Virus record (IMG/VR): IMGVR_UViG_3300033076_001343
Coordinates: 8,271 to 72,270 of that record
Direction: 5' to 3' (one strand)
Source: a virus
DNA length: 64,000 bases
The position numbers were made by a program, and so were the translations under genes. The notes under the pieces were generated by a model. That model made no database searches, was not told the DNA's origin, and was given only the letters and a program-made list of their open reading frames with translations. Each line of letters begins with the position of its first letter. Within the stretch, counting starts at the first letter, position 1. Shown here in pieces: positions 44,688-63,940 of the stretch.

Positions 44688-45191
44688 TTACTGACCTTTA
44701 ATCATTCCCATCCCGTGTTTTAAGAATTCTTTAGCTCTTGCTGAAATGTGTTGCATTCCATAAACTTTTTCGATGTCTTTTACCAACTCTTCACCATGTT
44801 CATTCTCACGATAAAGCTCGATTATTTTATCCATGGCTGAACCACATTCTTTTTTTGTTTCGTCAAAATAGTTATAAGGTTTGAATGACTTTAAATGATT
44901 CATCACTTCACTTGCCAAGTGTTCACCACCATCCGAAATTTTTGGATGTAATCGAAGGGTCTTTAACAACTCAATTTTATCAACCAAACCATTAACTCCG
45001 TTTGGTCTAATCTGAACACCCTCAATATAATCTTCGGTATCATCGTCACCAACAATTTCTTCAAGAGACTTTACATTCCCACCATGGCAGAATTTTCTGT
45101 CGTCTTCTTTTGTCTCGGACTCTTCTTTAATAAGATAAAGTCTTTTAATTTCTTCTTTATCTGATTCTGTAAGTTGAAATCTTTTTCCCAT
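44688..45191 (-). CDS. hypothetical protein, weak leader-family member (MGKRFQLTESD...LYLIKEE)
   Basis: 167-aa ORF; TATATTTATTGTT upstream. Confidence 0.45.
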   Translation of the reverse strand: MGKRFQLTESDKEEIKRLYLIKEESETKEDDRKFCHGGNVKSLEEIVGDDDTEDYIEGVQIRPNGVNGLVDKIELLKTLRLHPKISDGGEHLASEVMNHLKSFKPYNYFDETKKECGSAMDKIIELYRENEHGEELVKDIEKVYGMQHISARAKEFLKHGMGMIKGQ

Positions 45192-45217
45192 AACAATAAA
45201 TATAACAATAAAGTGAA

Positions 45218-45877
45218 TTATAATAATCCGTGTAAAAAAGAGATTTTTTCTTCTTTTGTCAATTCTTGATGGGTAAATGAGAACGGGTCATAATCACAGA
45301 GGTAAAAATGTTTTTTTAAGTTATGGTATACCTTTTTTGCTGTAGAAAAATCATACATAGACCTATAATCATATAAATCCTCATAAATTATACGTTTTTT
45401 ATCTATAATAGGGTCTATAAAGTCAATTTTATCTAAATCATCATAAAAATGTTCAATTCTAACAAAGTAATCAGGTATTTTATCATCAAATACCCATTTT
45501 TTAAAGTATTTCATGTTATTTGACTCATTTTCTAAAAAATCAACAGGATTTACGACCAATTTCCCTGATTTTAACGATTTTTCCACAAATTTGTTGAATT
45601 TTTCCCTTAAATCAGGTATAAATTTCTTTTTTACGACCTTATTTGGTGATACAAACCCTAAAAATAGGTCAAAAACCCTATAATATGGGTTGGATATCGT
45701 ACAAATTACCTTATAATCGGGAAATTGGGTTGATTCCGTCACACAGTGGTCATAATTTGTGATATTTTCACTATTTTCGACTGAAAACCCGTAGTTTTTA
45801 AGGATTTCATACATTTTATCCTCACCACTTGATTCAAGTGCCCACCAAATTACCTTATGTTCATGAGAAATGTTCAT
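45218..45877 (-). CDS. sulfotransferase-like protein (tentative)
   Basis: HKVIWWALESSG (PAPS 5'-PSB-like loop) and ISNPYYRVFDLF (resembles RNPxDRxxSxY). Confidence 0.35.
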   Translation of the reverse strand: MNISHEHKVIWWALESSGEDKMYEILKNYGFSVENSENITNYDHCVTESTQFPDYKVICTISNPYYRVFDLFLGFVSPNKVVKKKFIPDLREKFNKFVEKSLKSGKLVVNPVDFLENESNNMKYFKKWVFDDKIPDYFVRIEHFYDDLDKIDFIDPIIDKKRIIYEDLYDYRSMYDFSTAKKVYHNLKKHFYLCDYDPFSFTHQELTKEEKISFLHGLL

Positions 45878-45892
45878 TTTTCAATATTAAAT

Positions 45893-45921
45893 AAAAAAAC
45901 CCCTAATTTGGGGTCTTTTTT
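45893..45921 (-). terminator. intrinsic terminator
   Basis: A7-CCCC-TAATTT-GGGG-TCTTTTT. Confidence 0.5.
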
Positions 45922-46117
45922 AGAATAATTTTTGACTATCGTTGTAGAGTTTTTTCATTGACGCTTCAATTATGTTGATTTGTCTTTGGTCTTCATCTGT
46001 GACCTCAAAATTTTTGGCCTTAATTTGACGAACTTGTTCTTGCATTCGTTGATATCGGGTAATCATATCATCGTATAGTCTTGCCTTTTCTTGTTGTGTT
46101 AAATGTTGTGCTCCCAT
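45920..46117 (-). CDS. hypothetical protein
   Basis: 65-aa ORF. Confidence 0.4.
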   Translation of the reverse strand: MGAQHLTQQEKARLYDDMITRYQRMQEQVRQIKAKNFEVTDEDQRQINIIEASMKKLYNDSQKLF

Positions 46118-46147
46118 GTTGTGTTTTTTTATAAGGATAGTCTATAA

Positions 46148-46354
46148 TTATTTTTTATCAATAGGATTTGTTTTTTTATGTTCCTTCCATTCCAACCAAA
46201 AGGCTAAAGCAACTACAATATTCATTCCAGCGGACATTATTATCTCATGAATATCTTTGTATACATTCATAGTTAAATGAATATGACCAACCACCCAAAA
46301 CGGTATTGCCATATTGGAGCCTATCCATCGTATTGAGTATAATAAGAATGACAT
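46148..46354 (-). CDS. small two-TM membrane protein (holin-like candidate)
   Basis: 68 aa; two hydrophobic segments; charged C-terminus; immediately downstream of the transglycosylase. Confidence 0.4.
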   Translation of the reverse strand: MSFLLYSIRWIGSNMAIPFWVVGHIHLTMNVYKDIHEIIMSAGMNIVVALAFWLEWKEHKKTNPIDKK

Positions 46355-46355
46355 A

Positions 46356-47015
46356 TTATACCATTCCTGTTTGTTTGTAGTATTGCTTTAAATCTCCAAC
46401 AGTTAACGGAGATTCAATTGGCTTACCTAATTTTTTGTTGAATCCTGGATTTGCTTTAGCTACTGTTTTTGCTGAAAGGCCTTTAGCTTGTAAAACAAAA
46501 TCATCAGGTTTTCCCGCCGCAACAGGGAAGAAATTATAAATGTATAAATCTGCAGGGTTTTTTATTTTCCCTCGTTCATAACCACTTACCCAAAAGTCTT
46601 TGATTGCATCCATTTGAACCCCCAAATCATTTCTCAGTTCCTCTAACGTATATGTTTTACCATTTACAGTTTTAGTTCGACCACCTCCAGGACAAAACTG
46701 AATTAAACCAACACACCCAATACTATTTTTAATTTTTGGGTCCAATCCTGATTCGTGTTTCATTAGTTTAATTATTGAACTTTCAGGTATATTAATCGCA
46801 TTTGAAATCTCTTTCAATTTCTTTTTGAAAATAGGATTATTTAAAAGTTCTTGACCTTTTGCGGATATATTTGTTAATTCACTACTTTCGGTATTGCCTC
46901 CTGTTGAAGAAGTTTTGGTTGAAGTACTAATTGACTTTCCACCTGTAACCATTTTTATCAAATCAGATAAAAGACCTTTTAATTCTTGTTCTGTAAGTCT
47001 TACTACTCTTCCCAT
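46356..47015 (-). CDS. lytic transglycosylase (SLT-like) carrying an MGRVVRLTEQELKGLLSDLIKMV leader
   Basis: HESGLDP...GCVGLIQF matches the SLT catalytic E-S and GLMQ motifs; N-terminus belongs to the RLTESDL leader family. Confidence 0.65.
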   Translation of the reverse strand: MGRVVRLTEQELKGLLSDLIKMVTGGKSISTSTKTSSTGGNTESSELTNISAKGQELLNNPIFKKKLKEISNAINIPESSIIKLMKHESGLDPKIKNSIGCVGLIQFCPGGGRTKTVNGKTYTLEELRNDLGVQMDAIKDFWVSGYERGKIKNPADLYIYNFFPVAAGKPDDFVLQAKGLSAKTVAKANPGFNKKLGKPIESPLTVGDLKQYYKQTGMV

Positions 47016-47037
47016 ATTAAATAAATACCATAATAAA

Positions 47038-47066
47038 CAAAAAACCCCACCTGTGAGATGGGGTTT
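47038..47066 (-). terminator. member of conserved CCCCACC...GATGGGG terminator family
   Basis: AAAAACCCCACCTGTGAGATGGGGTTT; in minus sense, hairpin then T5. Confidence 0.6.
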
Positions 47067-47070
47067 GATG

Positions 47071-47520
47071 TTAAATCATTTCGATTGAGTTGATTTTGTC
47101 TCCTTGTTGGATTTGGTCTACAAGGTCAAGACCCTCAACCACTCTACCAAAACATGTATGGTTTCCATCCAAGTGTTGTGTGTTTTGTCGGTTATGACAG
47201 ATGAAGAACTGAGAACCACCTGTGTTACGACCTGCGTGTGCCATAGAAAGAACACCTTTGTCGTGGAATTGTTTTGGTGCGGTAACTTCACATTGAATTG
47301 TGTAACCTGGTCCACCATTACCCATTCCGTTTGGACATCCACCTTGAGCAACAAATCCTGGAATTACTCTGTGGAAATTAAGTCCGTCATAGAACTTTTT
47401 ATTAATCAAACTTTTGAAGTTCTCAACCGTGATTGGTGTTTCGTTGTCATACAACTCGGCAATCATATCACCCTTACTTGTAGAAATTTTTACTTTGCTC
47501 ATATAATTTGTTTTTGACAA
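47071..47520 (-). CDS. cyclophilin-type peptidyl-prolyl cis-trans isomerase
   Basis: FHRVIPGFVAQGG...HAGRNTGGSQFFI...GRVVEG, classic cyclophilin signature. Confidence 0.9.
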   Translation of the reverse strand: MSKTNYMSKVKISTSKGDMIAELYDNETPITVENFKSLINKKFYDGLNFHRVIPGFVAQGGCPNGMGNGGPGYTIQCEVTAPKQFHDKGVLSMAHAGRNTGGSQFFICHNRQNTQHLDGNHTCFGRVVEGLDLVDQIQQGDKINSIEMI

Positions 47521-47536
47521 TTATAGACAATTAAAA

Positions 47537-48388
47537 TTAGTGAATCAACACCTTCTTACGACTTCCATCATCATAAAGATAAATCAAGGTTTCTTCTTTC
47601 CTCATATGAGTGACCGGCTTACCCAACATATCGTAAACCCCAATTAGTTTTGGTTCAGGACGAGTTAGTACAACCATATTTGTTGTTGTTCTCTTACAAA
47701 CGTCTAATCGTCTGAACATAAACGTATCTTGTCTCAAACATTTATTCCACCACTGAGCAATCATCAATACACGGCCACTATCTTTAAAAGTATAATCAAC
47801 AACTCTAGTTGTAGTATAACCCAAAAAGTCATCATCAGGGAAATCATACTCCATACCAATTTGGTAATCAGTTAAGTTATCCCATTCTTTTTGAGACATA
47901 GTATCCATCCAAGGGCCCTTGTAGAACATTAGGTAGTATTCCATACAAGTATCTTTTAATGGGTAACCTTTAATATAACTCATTTCAAAGATATACTGTT
48001 TACAGTTTTGAGACATTGAATGATATCCAACACCAGCACCAGGGAACTGAATTATGTCGATTGGTCGTACCATTCCTGTGTCGCACTTTTCACATTTGTT
48101 CCATACTTTAACATAAAGTCTGTATCTACCCTTTTTGTTAAATTGTACTTCAACAATACCTCTAAAAGAATTTACAGTATCAATTTTCTTAGTTTGGTCA
48201 TCATAAACCATAAACATGTAATCAACACAAGTATCATCCAATACTTGACCACTTAAATACCACTTGTAATAATTACGTTCATTCCATTGTTGGAGTTTCA
48301 ATGTGCTCCAATCACATTTTGCATTTGCCGTTGCCAAGGAGACCAAAAGCATTAACAGCGATAATATACGTTTCATTTTCGAATACAA
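47537..48388 (-). CDS. secreted Cys-rich protein with internal duplication
   Basis: Signal peptide; two ~110-aa repeats (DDTCVDYMFMVYD.../KDTCMEYYLMFYK...). Confidence 0.5.
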   Translation of the reverse strand: MYSKMKRILSLLMLLVSLATANAKCDWSTLKLQQWNERNYYKWYLSGQVLDDTCVDYMFMVYDDQTKKIDTVNSFRGIVEVQFNKKGRYRLYVKVWNKCEKCDTGMVRPIDIIQFPGAGVGYHSMSQNCKQYIFEMSYIKGYPLKDTCMEYYLMFYKGPWMDTMSQKEWDNLTDYQIGMEYDFPDDDFLGYTTTRVVDYTFKDSGRVLMIAQWWNKCLRQDTFMFRRLDVCKRTTTNMVVLTRPEPKLIGVYDMLGKPVTHMRKEETLIYLYDDGSRKKVLIH

Positions 48389-48435
48389 ATATAGACAACA
48401 GGATTCGAAAAATGTGTCTTTGTAATGTCAAAAAA

Positions 48436-48765
48436 TTAGAATGGGAGCCACTCGTAAATTAAATCACCTTCAAGATTGTGTACGGTGAAAAAGATATTTC
48501 TAAAATTAATACTCAAATATTTGGATAAATCCACAATATATTTGTCTACCATCCAATGTGGGTCAAAATCTGAATCAAACATATTATCCTTAGTCATTAG
48601 CGAATCATTAACTACTATATCGAGAGTCATTACATAATATGGATTACCGTTCTTTGAAGATAACGACATATTGCTAATATCGATATGGTCGACCATCGGA
48701 TATATATTTTTAATAGCGTCCGAATTAATTAATTTACCTAATGCACTACGTATTGAACTTTCCAT
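48436..48765 (-). CDS. hypothetical protein
   Basis: 109-aa ORF. Confidence 0.45.
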   Translation of the reverse strand: MESSIRSALGKLINSDAIKNIYPMVDHIDISNMSLSSKNGNPYYVMTLDIVVNDSLMTKDNMFDSDFDPHWMVDKYIVDLSKYLSINFRNIFFTVHNLEGDLIYEWLPF

Positions 48766-49016
48766 TAGTACCTCCCTTGTAAATACACATAAACCACTTC
48801 AGGAATTTTGGTACAAGTATGTGGATTACCACTACCATCAACACAATCAATGTGGGGTAGCTCTTTAATGAATTTTTTTAGTTCTCTTGGTCCTTGTTTT
48901 AATCTAAAGACAACATAATTACGACTATAAAGTTTTTCAGGATTGTAATCCTCAGTCAATATTTTTTTGATAAGTGAGACCATATCCGATTCGGTTAACC
49001 TTATAGTTTTTTTCAT
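48765..49016 (-). CDS. leader-family A protein (MKKTIRLTESDMVSLIKKILTE)
   Basis: N-terminal 22 aa conserved with six paralogs. Confidence 0.5.
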   Translation of the reverse strand: MKKTIRLTESDMVSLIKKILTEDYNPEKLYSRNYVVFRLKQGPRELKKFIKELPHIDCVDGSGNPHTCTKIPEVVYVYLQGRY

Positions 49017-49087
49017 AATAGAACTTAATCTATTATAAATACCAAATTAATGGTGTTTATGTTGATAAATTGAGGATAAATACCAAA

Positions 49088-49294
49088 TCAATATGATTTA
49101 ATTGTTATGTATTCAGATTTATCAATCTTTTTGGTAATCTCCTCGGGAGTTTCGGTCACTCTAATAGCCGAATGGTCTGAAAATGAGAATTTAACATATG
49201 ACCCATCCTCAACTTTTTCAATATATAAAATATATGACGAGTTAACCATAACCTCATCACCGTCTCTGTTTGTTAGTTTAATAAAATTTCTCAT
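49088..49294 (-). CDS. hypothetical protein
   Basis: 68-aa ORF. Confidence 0.4.
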   Translation of the reverse strand: MRNFIKLTNRDGDEVMVNSSYILYIEKVEDGSYVKFSFSDHSAIRVTETPEEITKKIDKSEYITIKSY

Positions 49295-49295
49295 A

Positions 49296-49763
49296 TCAAT
49301 TTACAATTAAATTCTCAATAATCACAAAACCAATTAATCCTTCAATATAATTTGTAATTTCTTCTTCAGTACAATCCACAATTCGTTTCATATTAACTTC
49401 ACCATGAGTTGACAAATCAGGAATTACCTTTAAATCTTCAAGAACTCTGAGATTTTTAAGCTCAATTGCATATTTGTCCATTGTATCATCAAGAACAACA
49501 TTAAGTCCCATTAAAGTTTTTCTATGATTATCATAATAATCAGGATGTAGTAACCCTTCCAATGCGGGATACATTGTTATGGTGTCAGCACCACCTCTCA
49601 TAGAATTCCTATTAATTTGAGATGAAATTTGTGTAATTTTTTCTAAAAGAGTTTTATTCCAATTTAATTGGACTCCAACATCAGGGGCCGTAGTTTCTTG
49701 CCAACCCATAAAATTCCAAATAACAATATTATTCTCCATTTTTTTTATTTTTTTCTTCTTCAA
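49296..49763 (-). CDS. hypothetical protein
   Basis: 155-aa ORF. Confidence 0.45.
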   Translation of the reverse strand: MKKKKIKKMENNIVIWNFMGWQETTAPDVGVQLNWNKTLLEKITQISSQINRNSMRGGADTITMYPALEGLLHPDYYDNHRKTLMGLNVVLDDTMDKYAIELKNLRVLEDLKVIPDLSTHGEVNMKRIVDCTEEEITNYIEGLIGFVIIENLIVN

Positions 49764-49962
49764 AAAAAAGTATAATCTCTTTCTTATAGTGAATAATTAA
49801 AGGGTGAACAATAAAATACCCAATTAAGCCAAAAAATAATGAAAAAATACTAAACTCTAATGATAGATATGCAACAACCAATAATACCCCAATTGTAACT
49901 ATTAACGATGCCAACACACTCAATCCAAAATCCTTCAATTTATCCATAATATACTTTTTCAT
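49729..49962 (-). CDS. small membrane protein
   Basis: 77 aa with two TM segments. Confidence 0.35.
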   Translation of the reverse strand: MKKYIMDKLKDFGLSVLASLIVTIGVLLVVAYLSLEFSIFSLFFGLIGYFIVHPLIIHYKKEIILFFEEEKNKKNGE

Positions 49963-49986
49963 AATAATAAAAAAATTAATTGAAAT

Positions 49987-50014
49987 AAAAAACCCCTTAG
50001 TTAAGGGGTTCTTT
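49987..50014 (-). terminator. intrinsic terminator
   Basis: AAAAAACCCCTTAGTTAAGGGGTTCTTT. Confidence 0.5.
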
Positions 50015-50135
50015 CATTTTCTGTATAAGTTCATTAACTTTTTCGATTCTTTTAAGGTTTTTAACCAAATTTCCTCGATTTCTTTTTTTCTTACCTTCTT
50101 TTCTCGCCTTCGCCATAGAACTAATTTAAAACTAT

Positions 50136-50717
50136 TTATTTTTTTCCAACTAATTGGGATGGTTGTCCAGGTCTTTGAACTGTACCTGTAGGTAATGTTG
50201 GTAATGTTTGTATCGGTTCTTGAGCAGGTGATGATTGTTGTTGTGTAGACCCTAACGCTTTTTCAATCGCATTTAAAGTCGTATTTCCTAATACCCCATC
50301 GACACCATCTTTTTTAGGTCCTGAAGTACCCAAATTTATACCTTTACCCTTCAACAAATTTTGGATGTTCATAACCGTTGTTTTATTAAGATTTGGTTGT
50401 GTCGATACTTGTTTTTGGGGTGATGGGGTTTCTTTAGTTGGTGTTGTTGTCGTATTTGTTACTTTAGTTTCTTTAGGATTTGGTTTTTTACCACTACCTT
50501 TAGGACATTCCCAACCTGAGTTCTTATATCCCTCAACATCTGGAGACGACACACCACTTTCAGAATTGTAATTTGACCATCCACACGCCTTAGCTCTTGA
50601 CTGTAATTGTGCAACGTCTTCACTTATCACATTTAAATAATGTGATTTAGTTCTATTCTCATGTAAATTAAGAATTCTTTCTCTCTCTTCTTTTAATATT
50701 TCAAATATCTTACTCAT
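50136..50717 (-). CDS. hypothetical protein with Thr/Pro-rich linker and PG-binding-like C-terminal motif
   Basis: DGVDGVLGNTTLNAIEKALG resembles peptidoglycan-binding repeats; TATTTATTTATAAAA upstream. Confidence 0.45.
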   Translation of the reverse strand: MSKIFEILKEERERILNLHENRTKSHYLNVISEDVAQLQSRAKACGWSNYNSESGVSSPDVEGYKNSGWECPKGSGKKPNPKETKVTNTTTTPTKETPSPQKQVSTQPNLNKTTVMNIQNLLKGKGINLGTSGPKKDGVDGVLGNTTLNAIEKALGSTQQQSSPAQEPIQTLPTLPTGTVQRPGQPSQLVGKK

Positions 50718-50863
50718 ACAATTATTTTATAAATAAATACAACGAATTTGCAATTATAAAACTAACCAGTATTGTACCAGTGATATACAATATTTTATAT
50801 GTCAACTCAACTTGGTCTTTTCTTCGACCTTGATTTTCATTACAATCCCACTCTTCCATAATT

Positions 50864-51712
50864 TTAGTTTTTTCGTACTCTTAATCTATCTGTGTTATAA
50901 CCTTGCTCTCTCAAGTATTCTTCAATTATATTAACGACTGCATGTTCATTAGACCAGCTAGTCCATCTTTTAAATATTAAAATTATATCAGCAACTAACT
51001 GATTAGAACTAAAAGATATTTTAACCGAATGCAAATAGTTTGAAACTCCTGTTAGTTGTTTTATTTCTTTTTTGAAAACTTTATTGAAATATCCTTTAAC
51101 CCATTCTTCAGTACCTATAAATCTAGGGTCACCAACATTCAACTGTATCTTACCGTGGGCTGGACTACCTTGTTCTAATCCAAGATAATTGTTAACAAAA
51201 TGTCTAAATTCTCTTGGGAATGCCTTAACATGATTAAGATTACCGTCATATTTCATTGTAGGTACAAAATCGGCTTCTAAATAAGCATAAACATTAAATG
51301 GACTCCTCTCTTCAATTTTAAAAGTTATGAAATCAGGTAAATCATAACTTTCAACAAAATGGTTAATAGCCTTTGCAAATCTTTCACTAAATTTAAAACC
51401 TTTACCCATGTTTGGTAATTCTTTAATTCTTTTTTCAACCAAAGACCTACCTACTCTAACTAATTTATCTAAAGCATTACCATAACCAAAACGAGTTTCC
51501 AACTTATAATCCTTATCAAAATCTTCAAGATATTTTTTTACCAAATAAGACATTGGGTATTTACCAACCTCGTCACCATGAGTTTTTTTTATCCAAGGTC
51601 TAAAATTTTCAACAAACACCTCTATAAAATCCTCATTTGAATACCCTGATAAATCTAATGGTTCCAAATCCTCTGAATCTTCCTTCAAATATATTTTATA
51701 ATTTTCACTCAT
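50864..51712 (-). CDS. hypothetical protein
   Basis: 282-aa ORF; GGTATTTATAGATAC immediately upstream. Confidence 0.5.
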   Translation of the reverse strand: MSENYKIYLKEDSEDLEPLDLSGYSNEDFIEVFVENFRPWIKKTHGDEVGKYPMSYLVKKYLEDFDKDYKLETRFGYGNALDKLVRVGRSLVEKRIKELPNMGKGFKFSERFAKAINHFVESYDLPDFITFKIEERSPFNVYAYLEADFVPTMKYDGNLNHVKAFPREFRHFVNNYLGLEQGSPAHGKIQLNVGDPRFIGTEEWVKGYFNKVFKKEIKQLTGVSNYLHSVKISFSSNQLVADIILIFKRWTSWSNEHAVVNIIEEYLREQGYNTDRLRVRKN

Positions 51713-51770
51713 GTATCTATAAATACCATAAAAATAAAAAAACCTCGAATAAAAATCCGAGGCTCAAAAT

Positions 51771-52226: not shown

Positions 52227-52265
52227 AATAAACTAATAATAAGAATAATAAATCATTAATTCAAT

Positions 52266-52297
52266 AAAAAACCCCACTTATTAGGTGGGGTTTTTTA
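52266..52297. terminator. family terminator (bidirectional A/T runs)
   Basis: AAAAAACCCCACTTATTAGGTGGGGTTTTTT. Confidence 0.6.
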
Positions 52298-52310
52298 TAT
52301 TATAGTTTTT

Positions 52311-52667
52311 TTATTCAGGCCAACTATTTCCGTAATATTTTTGTTTAGGTCCTTTATACCTCACTTTGGTAGAACAACCTTTTTTCTTAACCTTATATTT
52401 TCCACCGTGGTTTAGACCAACTTTTTTAGCCTCTTCAGCACTAATGTCGTCAAAACATTTCATGTCTTCAGATGCAATTTTAGTTGAGTCCACAACAACT
52501 CCTGAGTCATCATCACCTTCATCTTCGTTAACTAATGGTTTTGCATCTCCAAGTTTGGCATTTAATAATCTTGAGAAACTTTCGGTCATAACATTCATTC
52601 CCCCTGTATGTTGCTCACGGATACTATTTTTCTCCTGTTCTGATAAATCATTTAAAATATGTTTCAT
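52311..52667 (-). CDS. hypothetical basic protein
   Basis: 118-aa ORF; AGTATTTATAATAAAACAA directly upstream of the ATG. Confidence 0.45.
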   Translation of the reverse strand: MKHILNDLSEQEKNSIREQHTGGMNVMTESFSRLLNAKLGDAKPLVNEDEGDDDSGVVVDSTKIASEDMKCFDDISAEEAKKVGLNHGGKYKVKKKGCSTKVRYKGPKQKYYGNSWPE

Positions 52668-52691: not shown

Positions 52692-53720
52692 TTAATGTTC
52701 AAATGTGTTACGTGTTTTGTAATCAAATACAACCATTAATCCACCTGAGGACTTTCTTATGAGATATTTAAGGTCATATATTAAATCTTCGTATCCATAT
52801 CCTGTACGAGCGGATGAAATATTGAATGTAATTTTAATATATAAACCAGGAGTTGTCTCATACATATTACCATCCATGTCAGTTCTTGAACCTGAAATCA
52901 TATTAATTTCGTCTACGGTAATACTATCAACATTATCAATTACATCACAAGAACTGAAACTAATATCATTTGGGAATGATTCATGACTTATGTCATTACA
53001 ACCTTTTTTAATGTAATCCAATTTTTCATTAATCAGTTCTTGGAATACTTCTTTTCTATCTGATTTTTGTTCTTGTAACGTCTCTTGGTCATCAAGGTCT
53101 AAATCTTGATTGGGTGAAGTTTTTGGGGGTAATGGTGGGTCCAACACAAATTTATCATTAACCCAATTTCTTAATTCATTTTCAACAAAATATTCAGGAA
53201 CCTCTTCGTCGTCAGGTTTTTCATCTGCCAAATCTGCAATGTAACGAGCAAATTTAACTTTATACTTATCATCCATCATGGTCATTAAACCATCGGAAAT
53301 GAAAAATATTTTTGATAATGGGTCTTCTAAATCAAGGTCACCTTCAGCAAGTTTAAACGCTCTTAATATGGATTTACCCCAAAATGTTTTATAACTTTCA
53401 GTTTCGGTAAGTCCTGGCTTTAATATCTTATTAACTGCTCTTGCAGCTCCTGCAACAATACCTGGAATCATTAGTTGTGGTAAAAAGAACGGGATTAATC
53501 TGATTGTTGCTTTGAAACCTCCTTCACCCATGTGTTTATACAAACGAGTTTTGGCTGCGGCTTTAACTAATTCTTTTAACTGACCAAAAGTAATCTTACC
53601 CTGAGCACTACAAAACTTTTTACTATCACAAATATTTTTAACCGCAGTTTTTGATGGCTCGACATCAAGTCCATCTTCCATGATTGTTTTATATTGTGAT
53701 TCTGTTATAACGTATTTCAT
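52692..53720 (-). CDS. leader-family B protein (MKYVITESQYKTIMEDG)
   Basis: 342-aa ORF; the N-terminal heptapeptide motif is shared with six other genes. Confidence 0.55.
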   Translation of the reverse strand: MKYVITESQYKTIMEDGLDVEPSKTAVKNICDSKKFCSAQGKITFGQLKELVKAAAKTRLYKHMGEGGFKATIRLIPFFLPQLMIPGIVAGAARAVNKILKPGLTETESYKTFWGKSILRAFKLAEGDLDLEDPLSKIFFISDGLMTMMDDKYKVKFARYIADLADEKPDDEEVPEYFVENELRNWVNDKFVLDPPLPPKTSPNQDLDLDDQETLQEQKSDRKEVFQELINEKLDYIKKGCNDISHESFPNDISFSSCDVIDNVDSITVDEINMISGSRTDMDGNMYETTPGLYIKITFNISSARTGYGYEDLIYDLKYLIRKSSGGLMVVFDYKTRNTFEH

Positions 53721-53721: not shown

Positions 53722-53982
53722 TTAGAAATTTCTTATCTCGTCTCCGTCTTCGTAACTGTTATATTCTTCTTCGCTAATTTTGACAGGTTTAAGTCCAAGT
53801 TCAAAAATCCCTTCGATAAAATAAACTTCATTTCGAGAACCCTTTTCAGTTGCCCCAACACCTACGGTATCACCATCCTCATCAATAATCTTAAAATAGT
53901 TAAATACGGTTTTGGACTCATTCACTACCTTATTTACTAATTTAACTAAATCAGACTCCGTAAGTCTTATTATTTTCTTCAT
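53722..53982 (-). CDS. leader-family A protein (MKKIIRLTESDLVKLVNKVVNE)
   Basis: 86-aa ORF; TCATATTTATTTAAT upstream. Confidence 0.5.
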   Translation of the reverse strand: MKKIIRLTESDLVKLVNKVVNESKTVFNYFKIIDEDGDTVGVGATEKGSRNEVYFIEGIFELGLKPVKISEEEYNSYEDGDEIRNF

Positions 53983-54005
53983 ATTAAATAAATATGAAGA
54001 ACAAC

Positions 54006-54033
54006 AAAAAACCCCACCTGTTAGATGGGGTTT
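54006..54033 (-). terminator. family terminator
   Basis: AAAAAACCCCACCTGTTAGATGGGGTTT. Confidence 0.6.
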
Positions 54034-56946: not shown

Positions 56947-57118
56947 TATGACAACTCCCTACTATATAAATTCGCCAAGATAATTCTTGCGAATCTAAAA
57001 TCTTTGGCGCGATTTAACTTTAACCCATATGCCAAGGCGATTGGTTTAAGGTGGGGATATGCTTCACTGATTGTCATTTTTCCGATTTCCATAACGTGTT
57101 TTTTACAAATATAATAAA

Positions 57119-57526: not shown

Positions 57527-57554
57527 GGCAGAATTATAAGAAAATAAAATGAAA

Positions 57555-57584
57555 CAAAAAACCCATCCTTGTGAGATGGGTTAA
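57555..57584 (-). terminator. family terminator (variant)
   Basis: AAAAAACCCATCCTTGTGAGATGGGTT. Confidence 0.5.
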
Positions 57585-57586
57585 AA

Positions 57587-58969
57587 TTATTTCTTTTTAT
57601 ATGCTTTAAATGGTTTGTCTTTATGTATGACTTCTCGACCTTTACCCGCAGGAGTTACATAATAATTTTTATTCTTAAAGATTATAAAACTATTTCCTTT
57701 GTTATATAAGATATACCCCAAGTCTTTTTTATTTTTATAACTATTGTTCATACCATAGGTATAAACCTTAATATCACCATTTGGCATTCTTTCAGTTCTA
57801 TCAACAGGTTTTATTTGAATGGTCATCGGTTGTTCTCCTGCGATTTTTAATGTAAGGTCAATAGAATCGTATCGGTCTCTCTTATTACCAGGGGGATAAA
57901 CCTCATATTCAAAATTTATTCCATTACTCTCCAAAAAATCGCTAAGATTTTTCAACGCCAAAAGTTCATTTTCAATACCACCTTTAATTGAGTTCCATTG
58001 TTTATTTAATAATGTCTTTAGAAATTTATCATCATTTTGGAACACCGAGCTCAACCATTCAATTTTATCACCCGAACCTTCTTCCCTCCATTTTTTATTA
58101 ATCAAGGCTTTGACCTCCGACTTTGTATCAAAAAAGTTCATTATTGACCAATCAATATCCATGTCAGTTTTTTCTCCAATTGTATGAATACCTCTAATAC
58201 CTGCAGTGGAATCACCATCTTCTTCAAACCAATTATCAGGAAAGGCCATTTTTAACGATTCTAAAATTTCGTCAGATGTAAAATCACCTTCAGTTGGTTT
58301 TTGTTCTTTCACTTTCATCAATGATAAAAGTTTATCATAATAAACATTTTTTAAATCAGTACCATAAACATATGGAGAGTTACCTTTAGTATGGATTATT
58401 CTACTATCAAATTCAAATTCACCAAAAGGACCTATAAAATATACCGTTCTTGGAGTTTCAGGTTCACGGTATTCACTTGAGTTAAAATCTGGTCCGTTAA
58501 AAAATACTACTCCAATTTGTGACTCACTATCTTTTTTTGGGAGAACTCCAATTCGACTATATTCATAATCAGGATAATCCTCATCAAAGTCTTCAACTTT
58601 TGTTACCTCAGATATTTCTTCATTAATTGAAATTGGCCAAATTCTTGTAAAGTCAAACTCCACACCCAAAACATCACTACAATATTCTCCAATAAGTGCA
58701 CTCGCCTCAAATCTATTGACATCAAACATTGACATAATGTTTTTAACAAATGATGAAGAAATTGCCAATTGCAGTTCACCTGCATTATTTTTTCGAACTT
58801 TAACTTGATATTGGTTATCTCCATCAAACTTATATCCTGGACCATCCTCATCACCAACACGAACCATATTTGCAAACGTCATATCCAAAAACCTTTTGAC
58901 CATACCACTTGTACGGTCTTCAGTTTCCATCAACTTTTCAAACTGTGATTCAGTTATAATATATCTCAT
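57587..58969 (-). CDS. leader-family B protein (MRYIITESQFEKLMETED), 460 aa
   Basis: Leader motif; the internal − ORF 58603-58875 in another frame is judged spurious. Confidence 0.55.
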   Translation of the reverse strand: MRYIITESQFEKLMETEDRTSGMVKRFLDMTFANMVRVGDEDGPGYKFDGDNQYQVKVRKNNAGELQLAISSSFVKNIMSMFDVNRFEASALIGEYCSDVLGVEFDFTRIWPISINEEISEVTKVEDFDEDYPDYEYSRIGVLPKKDSESQIGVVFFNGPDFNSSEYREPETPRTVYFIGPFGEFEFDSRIIHTKGNSPYVYGTDLKNVYYDKLLSLMKVKEQKPTEGDFTSDEILESLKMAFPDNWFEEDGDSTAGIRGIHTIGEKTDMDIDWSIMNFFDTKSEVKALINKKWREEGSGDKIEWLSSVFQNDDKFLKTLLNKQWNSIKGGIENELLALKNLSDFLESNGINFEYEVYPPGNKRDRYDSIDLTLKIAGEQPMTIQIKPVDRTERMPNGDIKVYTYGMNNSYKNKKDLGYILYNKGNSFIIFKNKNYYVTPAGKGREVIHKDKPFKAYKKK

Positions 58970-58987
58970 AATAATAAATACCTTTAA

Positions 58988-59563
58988 TTAACCTTCACTA
59001 AACCCTCCACTCGACGATAATTCATCTGTATCAATATCATAGTTGTCTTTTAACCATTTAGTTAACATCTCTTCAATTCTGAGGTGGTTAATACCAAAAA
59101 TATAAGATAATACACCTCCAAGTATTCTATTATTAACTGTTACTCTTATCTTCCCAGAAGGGAAAGTAATTACACCAGCAATTTTAGTCCCATTATGGTC
59201 TTTTAGAAACGTCCATTGTGGGTTTGGCTCGAACTCATCAAATTTTAAGTTATCAAATAATTTTAAAAAATCATCAGGAGTATTTATTTCAAGTATTTTT
59301 GCGAAATTTTTGGCACCACCAGCAACAATTACTGCAGCTTCATAACCTCTTGTAGTTAAAATGTCATATACATCTGATTTTGTAAGTCTGTTCTTAAGAA
59401 TCGTTTTAACGTTTTCAATATCACCAAAATATTTTTCAACATTTCTTAAACCATGAGATTTAATTAAATCAACCAACGCATCCCCCTTTGGCTGATTTTC
59501 AGCGATAACTCGTTTGACAATTCTAGTTAAGTCAGATTCCGTTAGTTTTATGATTTTTGGCAA
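58988..59563 (-). CDS. leader-family A protein (MPKIIKLTESDLTRIVKRVIAE) with probable TTG start
   Basis: Leader alignment requires initiation at TTG (plus-strand CAA, 59561-59563); TTGTATTTATAATAAACAAATTTAATT upstream. Confidence 0.5.
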   Translation of the reverse strand: MPKIIKLTESDLTRIVKRVIAENQPKGDALVDLIKSHGLRNVEKYFGDIENVKTILKNRLTKSDVYDILTTRGYEAAVIVAGGAKNFAKILEINTPDDFLKLFDNLKFDEFEPNPQWTFLKDHNGTKIAGVITFPSGKIRVTVNNRILGGVLSYIFGINHLRIEEMLTKWLKDNYDIDTDELSSSGGFSEG

Positions 59564-59614
59564 AATTAAATTTGTTTATTATAAATACAATTAAGGGTTA
59601 AAAAACTTTGCAGA

Positions 59615-60163
59615 TTGATTTTATTTAATTATCTTTGTTATATGAAAAAGTTAGTCACATTATTATCATTACTCTTAAGTGTTGTGGGCTTTACTCAAAC
59701 AAGAAAAGATATTGTCCCTAACAATATTGATATCAACTACCTTAACTCTTTAGTTCTCCAAATTTGTAATGAAAGAACCAAAGATAGTTCCGTATTCAAA
59801 ACAACAAGTTCTGTAACATTCAAATGTGCTGAATACCAATCAAGCTACATGGCTAAATACTCCATTTGTACTCACAATAATTTAAATACTCACAGAGGTG
59901 TAACTTTGAAAACAATTGTTGACCGAAAAAAATATTTTGATAAGTCTTCAGTGAATTCAATCGCTGAGATTTGCACATTCGCAACAGTAACAAAAAAAGT
60001 AACTTACGAAGAGTTGGCAAATACAATTATTGATAATTACTTCCTATCATCAGTTCATAAAAAAACTATCTTTAATGATTATCCATATGGTAGTTTTTCG
60101 TGTACTGTGGGAACATACGAAGGACAAAATGGTGTATACGTTACAGGATTCTTTAGTCGATGA
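59615..60163 (+). CDS. secreted hypothetical protein
   Basis: Signal peptide MKKLVTLLSLLLSVVGFTQ; the only + gene in the 44-64 kb block. Confidence 0.45.
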   Translation: MILFNYLCYMKKLVTLLSLLLSVVGFTQTRKDIVPNNIDINYLNSLVLQICNERTKDSSVFKTTSSVTFKCAEYQSSYMAKYSICTHNNLNTHRGVTLKTIVDRKKYFDKSSVNSIAEICTFATVTKKVTYEELANTIIDNYFLSSVHKKTIFNDYPYGSFSCTVGTYEGQNGVYVTGFFSR

Positions 60164-61420
60164 TTATTCGTATGATACGAATGAAAAACTCAACATCTCA
60201 ATAAACAGAAGACCGTCAGCTTCTTTAACAATAACAGGTCGAGAATCTGTAACAAACTTAGTACTTGAGTCAACTCTTGTATCGTAAGTCCTATCGTCGA
60301 AACTAGCGGTAACTATTTCACCAAAAGACATTCCGTCAACAATAAATGTATTACCTTTAATTTCACCAGAAACCTCTTTTTTGTTTAGGAAATTACCTGC
60401 AGTTCTATAACCCATAATACCTTTTCCGTCACCAGTAAATAATCCTTTAACTGATGTAACATCGCCTCTTTTAACTGCAACGGCACCATTAGGGAATTTT
60501 ACCGCTTCTAATTTTGGCCCTCCCCACTTTGTCAAATCAAGGTATTCTTTCTTAGCTTCAGCAGGTTTGTCAGTAGTTGTAGATGAGATTGAACCTGGTT
60601 CATCTTTAACGACAACATCAGGTTTTGGAATATCAATAGTGGTTTGTGAAGGTACAACAGTAACACTCTTATAGTCAAAACCTCTTTTACCTTCTTGACC
60701 ATAATAGTTTATACCTGGTTTATAGATAATGTTTTTTGATATGTTAATACCACCAGTCCTATCCATAACGTCTTGAACAATTAAGTTACCCAATTCTTTA
60801 GCTCTTGTATCTGCTAAATATTGGTTCATTTCACTTGGATTTTTAAGTCCATTATATAATGTACCAGGGTGGTCCAATTTAGAATAACCTTTAGGTACAT
60901 CATAAGTTGGTCTTGCAGCGTCTGCAGTACCTTGTATTGTTAATGTACCCATTTGACTCATATGGGCTGATTTAAGGAAGTCCACAATATTTTGAATGAA
61001 TATGTCATACTGAGCTTTAGCATCAGGGAAACTTTCAAATTTTGGTTTAACCATGTTATCAGGGTATGGGAATGCACTATCACTAAGATTTAATGAACTT
61101 AACACTGGTTTTTTCTCTTTTTCAGGTGGAGTTTGTGTTTTGACCTGCTCACCTCCACCAATTATTCGTGGAATGGATGAACCTGAAGTAATACCATATA
61201 GTTTTTTACCATATCCAACATTAACGGCATGGAAATTACTATCTCCTGCAAAGTTTAACATTCCCTTTTTACGACCTTGCCAGTTATATGGTGATTGTTC
61301 TTCGAATGGGTCATAAGCGGATTTTTTATCAATTTGTTCTTGTTCGCTAACCACAACACCTCTTTGATAACCAAAAAGATATTTTATTTTATTTACTTCT
61401 TCATTAATTAAGTTCCCCAT
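60164..61420 (-). CDS. hypothetical protein with MGNLINEE leader-like N-terminus
   Basis: Six-frame ORF extends to 61468, but TGTATTTATAGTTATAGTAGAATTATT precedes the internal Met; start set there. Confidence 0.5.
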   Translation of the reverse strand: MGNLINEEVNKIKYLFGYQRGVVVSEQEQIDKKSAYDPFEEQSPYNWQGRKKGMLNFAGDSNFHAVNVGYGKKLYGITSGSSIPRIIGGGEQVKTQTPPEKEKKPVLSSLNLSDSAFPYPDNMVKPKFESFPDAKAQYDIFIQNIVDFLKSAHMSQMGTLTIQGTADAARPTYDVPKGYSKLDHPGTLYNGLKNPSEMNQYLADTRAKELGNLIVQDVMDRTGGINISKNIIYKPGINYYGQEGKRGFDYKSVTVVPSQTTIDIPKPDVVVKDEPGSISSTTTDKPAEAKKEYLDLTKWGGPKLEAVKFPNGAVAVKRGDVTSVKGLFTGDGKGIMGYRTAGNFLNKKEVSGEIKGNTFIVDGMSFGEIVTASFDDRTYDTRVDSSTKFVTDSRPVIVKEADGLLFIEMLSFSFVSYE

Positions 61421-61455
61421 AATAATTCTACTATAACTATAAATACAATGATAAA

Positions 61456-61486
61456 CAAAAAACCCCACCTGATAAAGATGGGGTTT
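61456..61486 (-). terminator. family terminator
   Basis: AAAAAACCCCACCTGATAAAGATGGGGTTT. Confidence 0.6.
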
Positions 61487-61514
61487 ATATGTAAAAAAAA
61501 AATATTTTATAGGT

Positions 61515-61973
61515 TTAAAACCATTTTTCTGCTTTATTAAATTTCTGCATATAATTTTGGATTTTCATAAAGTGTTGAAAATTCTCATCCGTATAATTAT
61601 TTCCCGCACCCAACATTGCAATTTTTTGTGCCCATTGTTGTATGGTTGATTGAGGTCCAGTCTGTCCTCTTGAACGAATAGCACTTAAAATAGCACTTAA
61701 AATAGTTGGTTTATTTAATTGAGTTTTTACCATTGATAAAAATTTTGAATATTCATTATAATCGGAAAAAAATCCTTTAATCATTACCATATCTTCATTC
61801 CAGTCATCCCCCCATACATGTTTAAAGAACCTTTCAAAACGGTCTTGTTCCTTTGACTTTTTAGGCTGAGGTCCTAATCCAGGATTAATCCCTGATTGAG
61901 GTCCCTGTTCTTGAATAACTCGTTTAACGATACGAGCCAAATCGGATTCTGTAAGTCTTACTATTTTTTTCAT
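61515..61973 (-). CDS. leader-family A protein (MKKIVRLTESDLARIVKRVIQE)
   Basis: 152-aa ORF. Confidence 0.5.
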   Translation of the reverse strand: MKKIVRLTESDLARIVKRVIQEQGPQSGINPGLGPQPKKSKEQDRFERFFKHVWGDDWNEDMVMIKGFFSDYNEYSKFLSMVKTQLNKPTILSAILSAIRSRGQTGPQSTIQQWAQKIAMLGAGNNYTDENFQHFMKIQNYMQKFNKAEKWF

Positions 61974-61986
61974 AATTAAATCACTC

Positions 61987-62727
61987 TTAATCTCGTGTTG
62001 GTATTTTATTAGTAATTGTTAATTTACCTGATGAACAAACCCAATTGATTTCTTGTTTTTTTGGATAACCCTCACCTTTATCTATAACACCAGTACCTCT
62101 TGTCCAATCACTACCAGTTTTGAATAAATGTGTTTCGGACCCGTCACTATTCGTTTTAGAAAATACCTGACCCTCAAAATGTTTAGGTATTCTCATGTAA
62201 TCAATTTGACCCCATTTATACCCTTTAAAACAAGGATTTTCTGGTCTTGTCATACGAACATTCTTTATTAACGGTATTGTTTTTTTTGATACTTCGGCAT
62301 CATCCAAACTAATCAATTCACCTTTCTCAGGAAAAACAAATGTTCTACTTATCGACACAGGTACTCCCTTTTCTAAATTAACACCAAATTCGATTGACAT
62401 TTTCTGAATTTTACTTCCTCCTGAACTTTTTGGAAAAAATCTTCCTCTGAAAGCCATATTAACATATTTAATATCCATTACATTCTTAGCATTAGTATCA
62501 TAAGACATATATATAGGTTCTTCTTTAAGACTATCTAAAAAATAACATTCGTAATTATATCCATCATCTCTATCTTCAGCACAAATTGCCTTATTAATTA
62601 ATTTAGCGGCAACATCTTTAGTGAATTTTGATGCTTGTTTGTCAAATTTACCTGTAGTTTGTTCACTTATCACTCGTTTAACGATACGAGTCAAATCGGC
62701 TTCCGTTAATCTTATAATTTTTTTCAT
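61987..62727 (-). CDS. leader-family A protein (MKKIIRLTEADLTRIVKRVISE)
   Basis: 246-aa ORF; TTGTATATTTATTATAAACGAATTTAATA upstream. Confidence 0.5.
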   Translation of the reverse strand: MKKIIRLTEADLTRIVKRVISEQTTGKFDKQASKFTKDVAAKLINKAICAEDRDDGYNYECYFLDSLKEEPIYMSYDTNAKNVMDIKYVNMAFRGRFFPKSSGGSKIQKMSIEFGVNLEKGVPVSISRTFVFPEKGELISLDDAEVSKKTIPLIKNVRMTRPENPCFKGYKWGQIDYMRIPKHFEGQVFSKTNSDGSETHLFKTGSDWTRGTGVIDKGEGYPKKQEINWVCSSGKLTITNKIPTRD

Positions 62728-62815
62728 TATTAAATTCGTTTATAATAAATATACAATAGGATAAAAAAACCGACCCTTTTTCTGAGATGACACCAACGAG
62801 ATGTCCAAAATATAA

Positions 62816-62900
62816 GGGAAAATAACCGACGAAGTCGGTCGGGGACCGTCGCCACAAAAACGAGGAAAATATCCGACGAAGTCGGTCACCGTCGGCGCGT
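62816..62900 (-). repeat. GC-rich tandem hairpin repeat (two copies of AAAATA(A/T)CCGACGAAGTCGGTC + ACCGTCGSC)
   Basis: 22-nt direct repeats at 62819-62840 and 62867-62888, each an internal palindrome (CCGAC-GAA-GTCGG); GC content far above the genome background. Confidence 0.6.
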
Positions 62901-63013
62901 TCTGGTTAAAAAGATGAATAAAAGATACTATTTTTTATGATTAGATAGATAATCCATCAAAGATAAGAATGAATATACCAATATAAATCCAACTAAGGTA
63001 ATAACATTATTCA

Positions 63014-63307
63014 TTATAAGTTCCAATTAATAATTTCCTCAACAGGAAAATCATACTTATCTTCAAACCATTCACCAGCATATTCCAATGTATCGTCAAA
63101 TGATACTCCAAACATACCCTCAACAGCAGTAATTATATTATTATCAACAAACAATCTTCCACCCTCAAAAACATAATTCCAATCAGTATTGCCGTTTTCA
63201 TCAATAAGAAAAATTTCAACTTCATCTTCGGCAATATCATAGTCTTTAGAATCAAAATAATTCCAAATAAACTTTTTAATTTGTGATTCTTTAATTAGAT
63301 ACTTCAT
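63014..63307 (-). CDS. leader-family B protein (MKYLIKESQIKKFIWNYF)
   Basis: 97 aa, acidic/aromatic-rich. Confidence 0.5.
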   Translation of the reverse strand: MKYLIKESQIKKFIWNYFDSKDYDIAEDEVEIFLIDENGNTDWNYVFEGGRLFVDNNIITAVEGMFGVSFDDTLEYAGEWFEDKYDFPVEEIINWNL

Positions 63308-63608
63308 CGCCTATTACTTTATATTCATAAACCTTTAATCCTGTATGTTCTTCAAACCATGTCATAAAAATATCTTTCCATAAATTACCAAAATAGTTAT
63401 CAAGGTCAGGTGATTCACCAACAGTTAGTTTTCCATCAATGTACTTATACTTAACATAATCATTAACCTCAAAATAAACTTCACCCCAATTGTGATATTC
63501 ATCCTTATAATCTTCATGTTCTAACCAACCAAAGTCAGGATAATAATTATCATCCAAATATTTTCGAATAATTCCATCTATTTGTGATTCTTTAATTAGA
63601 TATTTCAT
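63291..63608 (-). CDS. leader-family B protein (MKYLIKESQIDGIIRKYL)
   Basis: 105 aa; body paralogous to the 63014 product (W/Y/E-rich). Confidence 0.5.
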   Translation of the reverse strand: MKYLIKESQIDGIIRKYLDDNYYPDFGWLEHEDYKDEYHNWGEVYFEVNDYVKYKYIDGKLTVGESPDLDNYFGNLWKDIFMTWFEEHTGLKVYEYKVIGDEVSN

Positions 63609-63940
63609 TACATACTCAAATTTGCATCTGCCATAGAGCCGCCATAAACTCTAATTTCTAAATCGTTAATATCGACATTTATTTTTTTAGAGACCCAATC
63701 ACCAATCACTTTTTTAGAATCGTATCGGTCCAAACCAAACATACTCTCAATTTCATCGGCCAATTCAATATTAATAATTAATGCATCTGCTGACGGAATG
63801 TATCGAAGTTGTGCCCAGCTATCAGAATCTGAATATGCAAAAAATGTTCCATATCGACTATCAATGATTTTAAAGTCCTTAGAGTCCAAGAAATTACCAA
63901 TCATTCGGTCCAACTGTGATTCGTTAATTAGATACTTCAT
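63608..63940 (-). CDS. leader-family B protein (MKYLINESQLDRMIGNFL)
   Basis: 110 aa. Confidence 0.5.
   Translation of the reverse strand: MKYLINESQLDRMIGNFLDSKDFKIIDSRYGTFFAYSDSDSWAQLRYIPSADALIINIELADEIESMFGLDRYDSKKVIGDWVSKKINVDINDLEIRVYGGSMADANLSM

Follow-up and report, generated by a model that had tools for sequence, protein, structure and literature searches.

What joins a series of genes whose products open with the same few residues and otherwise look unrelated? The question is raised by IMG/VR virus record IMGVR_UViG_3300033076_001343, of which positions 8,271 to 72,270 were analyzed (64,000 nucleotides; "the window"). The window is AT-rich (~32% GC) and phage-like, and nearly all genes from 44.7 kb to its end lie on the minus strand. 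No close relative was found among 50,697 deposited phage genomes (INPHARED; megablast of 20 kb). A preliminary description of this DNA had noted two conserved N-terminal peptides in that region, here leader A and leader B, and had proposed that they send diverse proteins into the phage head. The analysis reported here favors a reading in which leader A, and probably leader B, would be a propeptide that targets proteins to the capsid in a lineage of phages distantly related to T4. We put the probability of this reading at about 0.55, since whatever follows transcription is inferred, from docking and cleavage to packaging, ejection, and payload function, and so is the late timing.

If the reading holds, the tagged proteins would be made late in infection alongside the head proteins, and the amphipathic leader (strand MKKIIR plus helix) would dock them on the scaffolding core of the assembling prohead. 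A gp21-type prohead protease would then cut after the Glu of I/V/L-x-E (E22 in leader A, E7 in leader B), and the mature, diverse payloads would remain in the head and be ejected with the DNA. They would form a fast-turnover cassette repertoire that probably acts at entry, with the cell wall and host defenses among the conceivable targets.

Leaders and payloads

Window genes were scored with hidden Markov models (HMMs) built from IMG/VR sequences only, with the window sequence excluded to avoid circularity, against six-frame open reading frames (ORFs). Leader A (consensus MKKIIRLTESDLTRIVKRVIxE, 22 residues, at the protein N-terminus) was solid in five genes, all on the minus strand (starts at 61973, 62727, 53982, 59563 [TTG], and 49016; E = 3e-16 to 5e-9). 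The gene at 61987..62727 (246 amino acids [aa]; E = 1.3e-15) encodes the N-terminus MKKIIRLTEADLTRIVKRVISE, then Q after the proposed cut, and its product had no Pfam, PHROG, or NCBIfam match. For the 152-aa product of 61515..61973 (E = 3.2e-16), a single-sequence AlphaFold2 (AF2) model of low confidence (pLDDT 45) gave a helix at residues 9 to 23 and coil at 24 to 40. The TTG-started gene at 58988..59563 (191 aa; E = 7e-12) has a product with a homolog, P0162, at 96% identity and a C-terminal half similar to the leader-B domain described below. The remaining two are 53722..53982 (86 aa; E = 4e-12) and 48765..49016 (83 aa; E = 5e-9), the latter beginning with MKKTIRLTESDMVSLIKKILTE and then D after the proposed cut. 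The ORFs and N-termini listed in the preliminary description agreed with the ORF list, and its count of at least 14 minus-strand leader genes came down to 10 solid genes (5 A and 5 B) and 1 marginal gene.

Conservation in leader A ends at a sharp boundary. Across 158 unique leader-A proteins, information content was at least 3 bits at positions 1 to 20 (position 13 excepted), 1.5 bits at position 21, 4.16 bits at position 22 (Glu, 98%), 1.6 bits at position 23 (Gln, 49%), and ~0.3 bits from position 24 on. Position 20 was I (78%), L (11%), or V (6%), together 95%, and position 21 was variable; the pattern is a hydrophobic residue, any residue, and Glu, after which conservation stops abruptly. 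The earlier statement that both leaders end in I/L/V-x-E proved correct, at position 22 in leader A and at E7 in leader B. The cleavage motif of the T4 prohead protease is L/I-x-E. The sequence of leader A suggests a short basic strand (MKKIIR), then an amphipathic helix (LTESDLTRIVKRVIxE), with a polar linker behind it, and 9 to 10 of its 22 residues are charged (consensus reading). Codon use at invariant positions was diverse (Leu7, six codons; Ser10, five, from both classes and including AGT; Arg18, six), with a third-position identity of 0.58. The codons are scrambled and the peptide is kept; therefore, selection acts on the protein. A leader function at the RNA or DNA level was ruled out by the same codon diversity.

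Leader A occurs far more often than expected by chance. A profile of five window leaders was run against 1.84 billion protein cluster representatives (50% identity, public metagenomes) and found the leader heading 7,736 representatives at E <= 1e-3 and 345 at E <= 1e-10, with the motif at residue 1 in ~95% of the best 150 matches. A degenerate-pattern scan of IMG/VR gave at least 292 confirmed stretches, of which 78 loci were kept (contigs up to 321 kb). These loci held 211 leader-A ORFs, 193 of them starting exactly at the leader Met, and 50 leader-B ORFs. As many as 8 A and 11 B ORFs occurred per 20 kb. An exact 39-mer search of IMG/VR gave no match, and an exact-protein look-up for the product of 63608..63940 returned no record.

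The named leader-A members were all "hypothetical protein" entries of metagenomes, and a 42-column profile search gave only fragments of 74 aa or less. Neither leader has a model in Pfam, PHROG, or NCBIfam; DUF6576 was rejected as a candidate, since on protein P0057 it spans the payload and not the leader. A PDB sequence search with leader A returned chance helices only (best no better than E = 0.06). A literature search found no paper on "LTESDL" and none tying capsid targeting, internal proteins, and metagenomes to the leader-A motif, and a search for "ITESQ" (leader B) gave only noise. A ribbon-helix-helix fold (CopG/Arc, ~45 residues) was dismissed, since conservation covers no more than a strand and the first helix and stops at residue 23, and there was no Pfam match. 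The hallmarks of Sec, Tat, and lipoprotein signals were also missing: the consensus MKKIIRLTESDLTRIVKRVINEQ has no hydrophobic core (longest run, 2), twin-arginine, or lipobox. Read from the consensus in this way, Sec or Tat export by leader A is unlikely.

What follows the leader is highly diverse. The 199 unique leader proteins from the 78 loci and the window fell into 147 BLAST payload clusters, 122 of them singletons. With phmmer, 158 A proteins formed 123 components and 39 B proteins formed 18; the claim that payloads are unrelated thus holds for leader A and fails in part for leader B, which includes paralogs. The payloads of leader A are almost all ORFans, and their isoelectric points are bimodal (56% above pH 8). 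Pfam domains were present in only 6 of 125 sampled global leader matches, LysM, annexin-like, and GNAT domains included; other payload domains were SLT (in the window), PG_binding_1 with YkuD/Tlde1, and PG_binding_1 alone. The payloads that could be recognized are cell-wall-acting (SLT, PG_binding_1 with YkuD/Tlde1, and LysM).

Tag and payload also come apart. The window gene at 50864-51712 has no leader, and its homolog in another locus (41% identity) opens with the leader-A variant MKKIIKITEKELKNL; the tag has therefore been gained or lost on a given payload and is modular. A Logan contig (L279) is 96.8% identical to the window over 14.7 kb and adds ~3.5 kb past its end. The window has exactly one leader-B cassette more than L279, 63608-63940, with its breakpoint within a 27-nucleotide (nt) leader-B coding repeat. 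Neighboring leader-A genes are 85 to 87% identical over 67 nt of leader DNA, and in locus L063 two leader-A genes are inserted between homologs of two genes that in the window are direct neighbors. This cassette turnover is in line with the plasticity described for internal-protein loci in T-even phages (PMC3012670).

Two further genes had been assigned leader A. The product of 46356..47015 (minus strand) consists of a divergent leader, a linker rich in Ser and Thr, and an SLT lytic transglycosylase domain (PF01464, residues 70 to 114; 23.3 bits versus a Pfam curated cutoff of 21.3; E = 4.9e-5). Its leader match is marginal (E = 0.004) and confined to the first 12 residues, where only MGRVVRLTEQEL matches, with no x-E at position 22. 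The transglycosylase domain of the preliminary description was confirmed above the Pfam cutoff, and the leader ascribed to it is divergent and lacks the terminal x-E. To call it an ejected enzyme was an overstatement, supported only by PHROG matches to baseplate-hub proteins and lytic tail proteins (phrog_13530, 5e-17; baseplate hub, 1.4e-9). The other gene, 44688..45191 (minus strand), begins with the weak look-alike MGKRFQLTESD, and its E value of 0.15 is non-significant, so it was not retained as a member; its product is kept at 82% in L063.

Leader B (consensus MKYLI[KTN]ESQ) was clear in five window genes, again on the minus strand (starts at 53720, 58969, 63940, 63608, and 63307; E = 1e-7 to 3e-4). 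They are 63608..63940 (110 aa; E = 2e-6); 63291..63608 (105 aa; E = 2e-4); 63014..63307 (97 aa), a paralog of 63608 (payload versus payload, E = 2e-6); 57587..58969 (460 aa; E = 4e-7), whose N-terminal ~110 aa are the B domain; and 52692..53720 (342 aa; E = 1e-7). The window end cuts one more gene of the tandem B array, leaving its 3' end (63938..64000, minus strand); the full five-gene array is present in L279. I5 and E7 of leader B are each 100% conserved. A ~90-aa B domain is common to 63014, 63608, 57587, and the C-terminus of the leader-A gene 58988. Because the small B proteins are paralogous and the domain recurs in 57587 and 58988, leader B is largely the start of a domain family, whereas leader A is a free-standing tag. 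By eye, the two leaders have in common the core (L/I)TES(D/Q)L-x-(R/K)-hydrophobic-hydrophobic. Two proposed leader-B members dropped out: the gene at 29398..30021, with the B-like N-terminus MDFLINESQL, is on the plus strand and non-significant (E = 0.52), and 60164 had no HMM match, its real start being the ATG at 61420.

Head genes of leader-carrying phages

Portal (T4-type), large terminase (TerL), and a baseplate wedge protein were among the commonest larger ORFs of the leader loci (clustering and annotation). In nine loci, TerL and portal (and protease or major capsid protein [MCP] where the locus reaches) lie no more than 10 kb from leader-A genes. Locus L056 has the order TerL; a portal gene that contains an HNH insertion; two or three small core-like genes; Peptidase_S77; a gene with a further leader, leader C; a leader-A pair (346 and 125 aa); scaffold; and Gp23 MCP. 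The prohead protease (6511-7215) is of the gp21 family (Peptidase_S77; Pfam, 1.6e-22), and the capsid protein (11031-12851) is Gp23 (2.3e-74), with the acidic scaffold-like protein (9606-10994) upstream. Locus L055 shares with L056 the placement of two leader-A genes directly between the protease and the scaffold/MCP genes. The L056 portal gene (1784-4762) encodes 992 aa with the HNH-endonuclease segment inserted near the N-terminus; this insertion could represent an intein or else a homing element nested in the gene.

The capsid protein was found in 80 further loci, two of which share contigs of 296 kb and 321 kb with leader loci (L062/L087 and L033/L128); some leader-A carriers lie on contigs of 240 to 334 kb. 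The closest cultured MCPs were those of Microcystis phage Mel-JY01 (43%), Flavobacterium phage vB_FspM_immuto (42%), and Rhodothermus phage RM378 (30%). The head-gene order of the immuto phage is that of the clade, and leader A was absent from it by tblastn. From this closest cultured relative and sequence features judged by eye, the hosts of the leader-A clade are probably Bacteroidota. Two adjacent immuto genes (locus L159, 2712-4012) share a leader of their own, M..NF(N/D)L(R/K)(S/K)FL(T/V)ENKLT..(L/I)LKE; the annotation of one of them as a cob(I)alamin adenosyltransferase looks mistaken. The immuto phage could be an experimental system for leader function.

At its predicted maturation site the clade MCP has an invariant ..ENQAS[HFY]LINE followed by A and then a variable stretch, which aligns with the maturation site of T4 gp23, LTE65 followed by A; immuto has IVSE followed by A. 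Other head-module proteins of the clade open with helices ending in ILKE before A, LLKE before D, or MLEE before A. The last residues are VI(N/S/K)E in leader A and ITE in leader B; on sequence grounds, all of these ends fit a single protease specificity.

The window itself shares ~45 non-leader genes with the leader loci (35 to 85% identity). Its convergent pair 59615-60163 (plus strand; a signal-peptide protein, with homology cited from 59642) and 60164-61420 (minus strand) has homologs 2 to 3 kb from the MCP gene in L084 and L112. The second gene of the pair, 60164..61420, encodes a 418-aa protein with another N-terminal helix ending in ..GVVVSE and then Q, and it is 50% identical to L084 6389-7621 and 41% to L112.

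A promoter-like TATTTAT box lies 11 to 25 nt upstream of the ATG in ~25 window genes, including leader genes, the two fiber-like genes at 38202-41941, and genes for other N-terminal-helix proteins, and is absent from the plus-strand nucleotide-metabolism block at 21.8 to 28.7 kb. In L056 and L084 the box stands ahead of the protease, the leader-A pair unit, and the scaffold-MCP unit. The box may be a late promoter. In the window, the 61987-61515 unit has a box at 62745..62751 and ends at a terminator-like GC-rich hairpin with a T-run at 61463..61483 (both minus strand); 61515 has no box of its own and appears to be co-transcribed with 61987. Similarly, the leader-B gene 52692 lacks a box and comes after the leader-A gene 53722. 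Further boxes are at 59581-59587, 58974-58980, 53988-53994, 49035-49041, 47021-47027, and 61439-61445, and further terminator-like hairpins are at 54012-54030, 52272-52290, and 47045-47063.

Other leader classes and window features

Leader C (MNKSFSKIRHIQESNQRLEKRLLKE) heads L056 7532-7984 (150 aa), just upstream of the two leader-A genes, and is found on N-termini in L021, L030, L040, L047, L049, L067, and L071 (72 to 85% identity over the first 26 to 29 residues only). Leader D (MxIKDLIKKILKE, then ATSD) belongs to a conserved head-module family (..CRAAGVAGKMSDSEKR..) seen at L056 18012-18725, L084 8484-9176, and in L107, L123, L137, L142, and L145. Many copies of this family bear an in-frame internal leader A and an extra C-terminal domain, and the product of L084 8484-9176 ends in the leader-like helix ..IRLSENQLESLVKSIVKEYLNKP. 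The window gene 33870-34493 was placed in the family by eye only, as direct comparison gave no window match. Six metagenomic proteins (P0131, P0132, P0134, P0137, P0138, and P0146) have both N-terminal and internal leader-A copies and look like two in-frame tag-payload units. Independent expression of internal leader-A copies was ruled out, there being no promoter box upstream of them.

Several window proteins open with another helix. A 193-aa product (50136..50717, minus strand) has the N-terminus EERERILNLHE...NVISE, then D, and proteins judged similar by eye follow the MCP in L084. This helix, of the form ..EE(R/K)xxIxxLH/MH.. or ..LMGY/LFGY.. and often ending in hydrophobic-x-E-(Q/N/D), recurs at 52311-52667, 14380-15408, 20463-21758, 42714-43007, 6000-7313, and 15421-16497. 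Peptidoglycan-binding domains, suspected by eye on 15421 and 50136, were dropped when Pfam found nothing on 10 other N-terminal-helix window proteins; no protein with this helix type has a Pfam match. A 155-aa ORF at 49296-49763 is weakly similar (32% identity over 57 aa; E = 4e-6) to residues 434 to 490 of the clade MCP and has no Pfam match.

Two large paralogs, 38202-40022 and 40058-41941, have long Pro/Thr-rich linkers and a Gly-rich region, and both follow a TATTTAT box. Their products match phrog_2295 and a tail-protein PHROG and are therefore probably fiber or surface proteins. Outside the TATTTAT-box class, on the plus strand, are a carbamoyltransferase gene (11220-12890; ~32% identity to those of T4-like cyanophages) and, beside it, an ORF that looks ClpP-like by eye (12927-13631). 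An array of 14 tRNA genes (812-9559), interspersed with small ORFs, includes two copies of tRNA-Asp(GTC) and two each for Pro, Leu, and Gly.

Possible roles of the leader and known systems

The capsid-targeting reading draws on the S77 protease and gp23 of the clade, the adjacency of leader-A genes to head genes, the I/L/V-x-E22 end, and the common box. The preliminary description had called for a search for a gp21-like prohead protease, and for the clade that search succeeded: one was found on related leader-A contigs, with gp23, a T4-type portal, and TerL. Several observations weigh against the reading. The 64-kb window holds no head genes, so the protease of the window phage itself is inferred from relatives. 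By direct comparison leader A is not homologous to the capsid-targeting sequences (CTSs) of T4, with only a Met-Lys start and an I-x-E end in common, and tblastn of leader A and of a leader protein against the 50,697 INPHARED records found nothing, so that no cultured carrier is known there. After the proposed leader-A cut stands Q (49%) or N, versus A in the core head proteins of the clade, and near-invariance across 22 residues exceeds the obvious need of a docking-and-cleavage signal. An in-frame leader A also occurs inside a conserved ~350-aa head-module protein, after ..KKTNEN, with Met or Val kept and a ~190-aa domain behind it, and tandem copies appear among the global matches, which is unexpected for a strictly N-terminal propeptide. 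Internal and tandem copies would suit a general docking helix, or a module between domains that can be cleaved, rather than a strictly N-terminal signal. In leader B, finally, conservation runs on beyond E7, for which reason it may be the mere start of a domain.

The main competitor to capsid targeting, itself rather improbable, is a docking or oligomerization helix that is retained uncleaved and ties diverse small proteins to one shared partner in the virion or its assembly (head interior, portal, baseplate, or tail). It finds support in the internal, C-terminal (L084 8484-9176), in-frame fusion, and tandem copies, in leader genes that adjoin the baseplate-wedge gene in L074 and L077, in the layout of strand and amphipathic helix (read from sequence, with helix 9-23 in the AF2 model), and in the P1' residue after the cut, which is Q or N where core head proteins have A. 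A retained helix would leave unexplained that the hydrophobic residue 20, variable residue 21, and 98% Glu at residue 22 make an exact T4-type cleavage motif, that conservation stops at Glu22 where a polar linker begins, and that leader-A genes adjoin protease and scaffold genes. The same head-operon position, and the box held in common with head genes, speak against a distinctly less probable explanation, an intracellular regulatory tag with no virion role: an N-terminal degron or adaptor-binding peptide for timed turnover by a phage ClpP or host protease, or a handle for a common chaperone. The ClpP-like ORF of the window (12927-13631, by eye) favors such a tag, and the Met-basic-basic-hydrophobic N-terminus of leader A is, we presume, loosely like ClpX N-motifs; degrons, however, are short and degenerate as against 22 near-invariant residues, and cell-wall-acting payloads make little sense in the cytoplasm.

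Those payload domains (SLT, PG_binding_1, YkuD, and LysM), together with hydrophobic segments seen by eye in some payloads, could instead suggest a non-classical export signal to the periplasm or surface of the infected cell. We give this very little weight: the leader, as read from sequence, has no h-region, 9 to 10 charged residues of 22, and no twin-arginine or lipobox; genuine Sec and lipoprotein signals in the window look different (e.g., 16855-17391 and 59615-60163); and an extracytoplasmic hallmark is missing from more than 90% of payloads. Just as remote is the idea that the conserved 5' end is a recombination handle for cassette swapping with little or no peptide function. The one-cassette indel between window and L279 with its breakpoint in the 27-nt leader-B repeat, the 85 to 87% identity of neighboring leader-A DNA over 67 nt, and the leader-A genes inserted between syntenic genes in L063 are what such a handle would leave, but the peptide is kept across the family through six Leu and six Arg codons at a third-position identity of 0.58, and recombination at leaders is more plausibly a side effect that makes turnover faster. 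Capsid targeting remains the preferred reading.

A bolder form of the capsid-targeting reading, to which we lean somewhat less than to its opposite, is that leader A is the universal portable capsid-loading tag of an abundant uncultured T4-like clade. Its 7,700+ tagged families would then be a vast, rapidly changing library of injected effectors (anti-defense, host-takeover, and cell-wall functions), and leader classes A to D with internal copies would give combinatorial, polyprotein-like loading and processing beyond that of T4. If the tag does load the capsid, one 22-residue motif would flag thousands of candidate injected effectors straight from sequence, in phages that are uncultured. Injected effectors would be the earliest phage proteins that a host encounters and a most promising class in which to seek anti-defense functions. 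The internal-protein strategy of T4 would be hugely scaled up in environmental T4-like phages, some of them jumbo sized, and protein-delivery engineering would gain a second, very strongly conserved packaging tag. Under any mechanism, a near-invariant peptide on more than 7,700 unrelated families merits description.

Functional analogs outside phage heads exist in the cargo-loading peptides of encapsulins and the trafficking domains of polymorphic toxins, which likewise combine a short conserved address, a flexible linker, and swappable cargo. They are analogs only: encapsulin tags are C-terminal, uncleaved, and unrelated in sequence, and in polymorphic toxins the addressing is done by large N-terminal domains together with secretion systems.

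Among phages, the phiKZ-like jumbo phages (phiKZ, 201phi2-1, and SPN3US) resemble the leader-A clade in having many head-internal proteins cut after Glu by a gp21-related protease, and SPN3US gp53 and gp54 are paralogs with identical N-termini and divergent bodies (PMC5694885). Their propeptides differ, being mostly longer than 100 residues, with the motif A/S/G-x-E, few paralogs, and no universal tag. A recognizable gp22 scaffold is missing there, whereas the leader-A clade keeps the T4 head-gene order.

T4 is the closer match. Its internal proteins are diverse defense proteins with only a CTS in common (PMC3012670), and its CTSs are N-terminal propeptides of 10 to 20 residues removed by gp21, which cuts after Glu; the gp23 propeptide has 65 residues (PMC5694885). 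In the T4 genome (NC_000866) the sites read MKTYQEFIAE before A in ipII and ipIII, MKTFKEFTSTTTPVSTITE before A in ipI, MAKINELLRE before S in gp24, and ..SFLTE65 before AEIGG in gp23. As with the CTSs of IPI, IPII, IPIII, Alt, and gp24, leader A is a short conserved N-terminal peptide on unrelated, fast-evolving proteins and ends in hydrophobic-x-Glu. Its lineage, too, has genes for an S77 protease of the gp21 family, an acidic scaffold, and a gp23 capsid protein, and the tagged genes are located in plastic regions. Leader A differs in its 22 residues, its far stronger conservation, and Q or N after the cut in place of A or S. It also has internal and tandem copies and co-exists with leader classes B, C, and D (C and D in relatives). 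The last 20 kb of the window hold 10 solid tagged genes (11 to 12 with the SLT gene and the truncated array gene) and the clade thousands of payload families, versus a handful in T4. The best-supported description is a propeptide system of the T4 kind with a new, far more conserved tag, expanded on a scale not described before.

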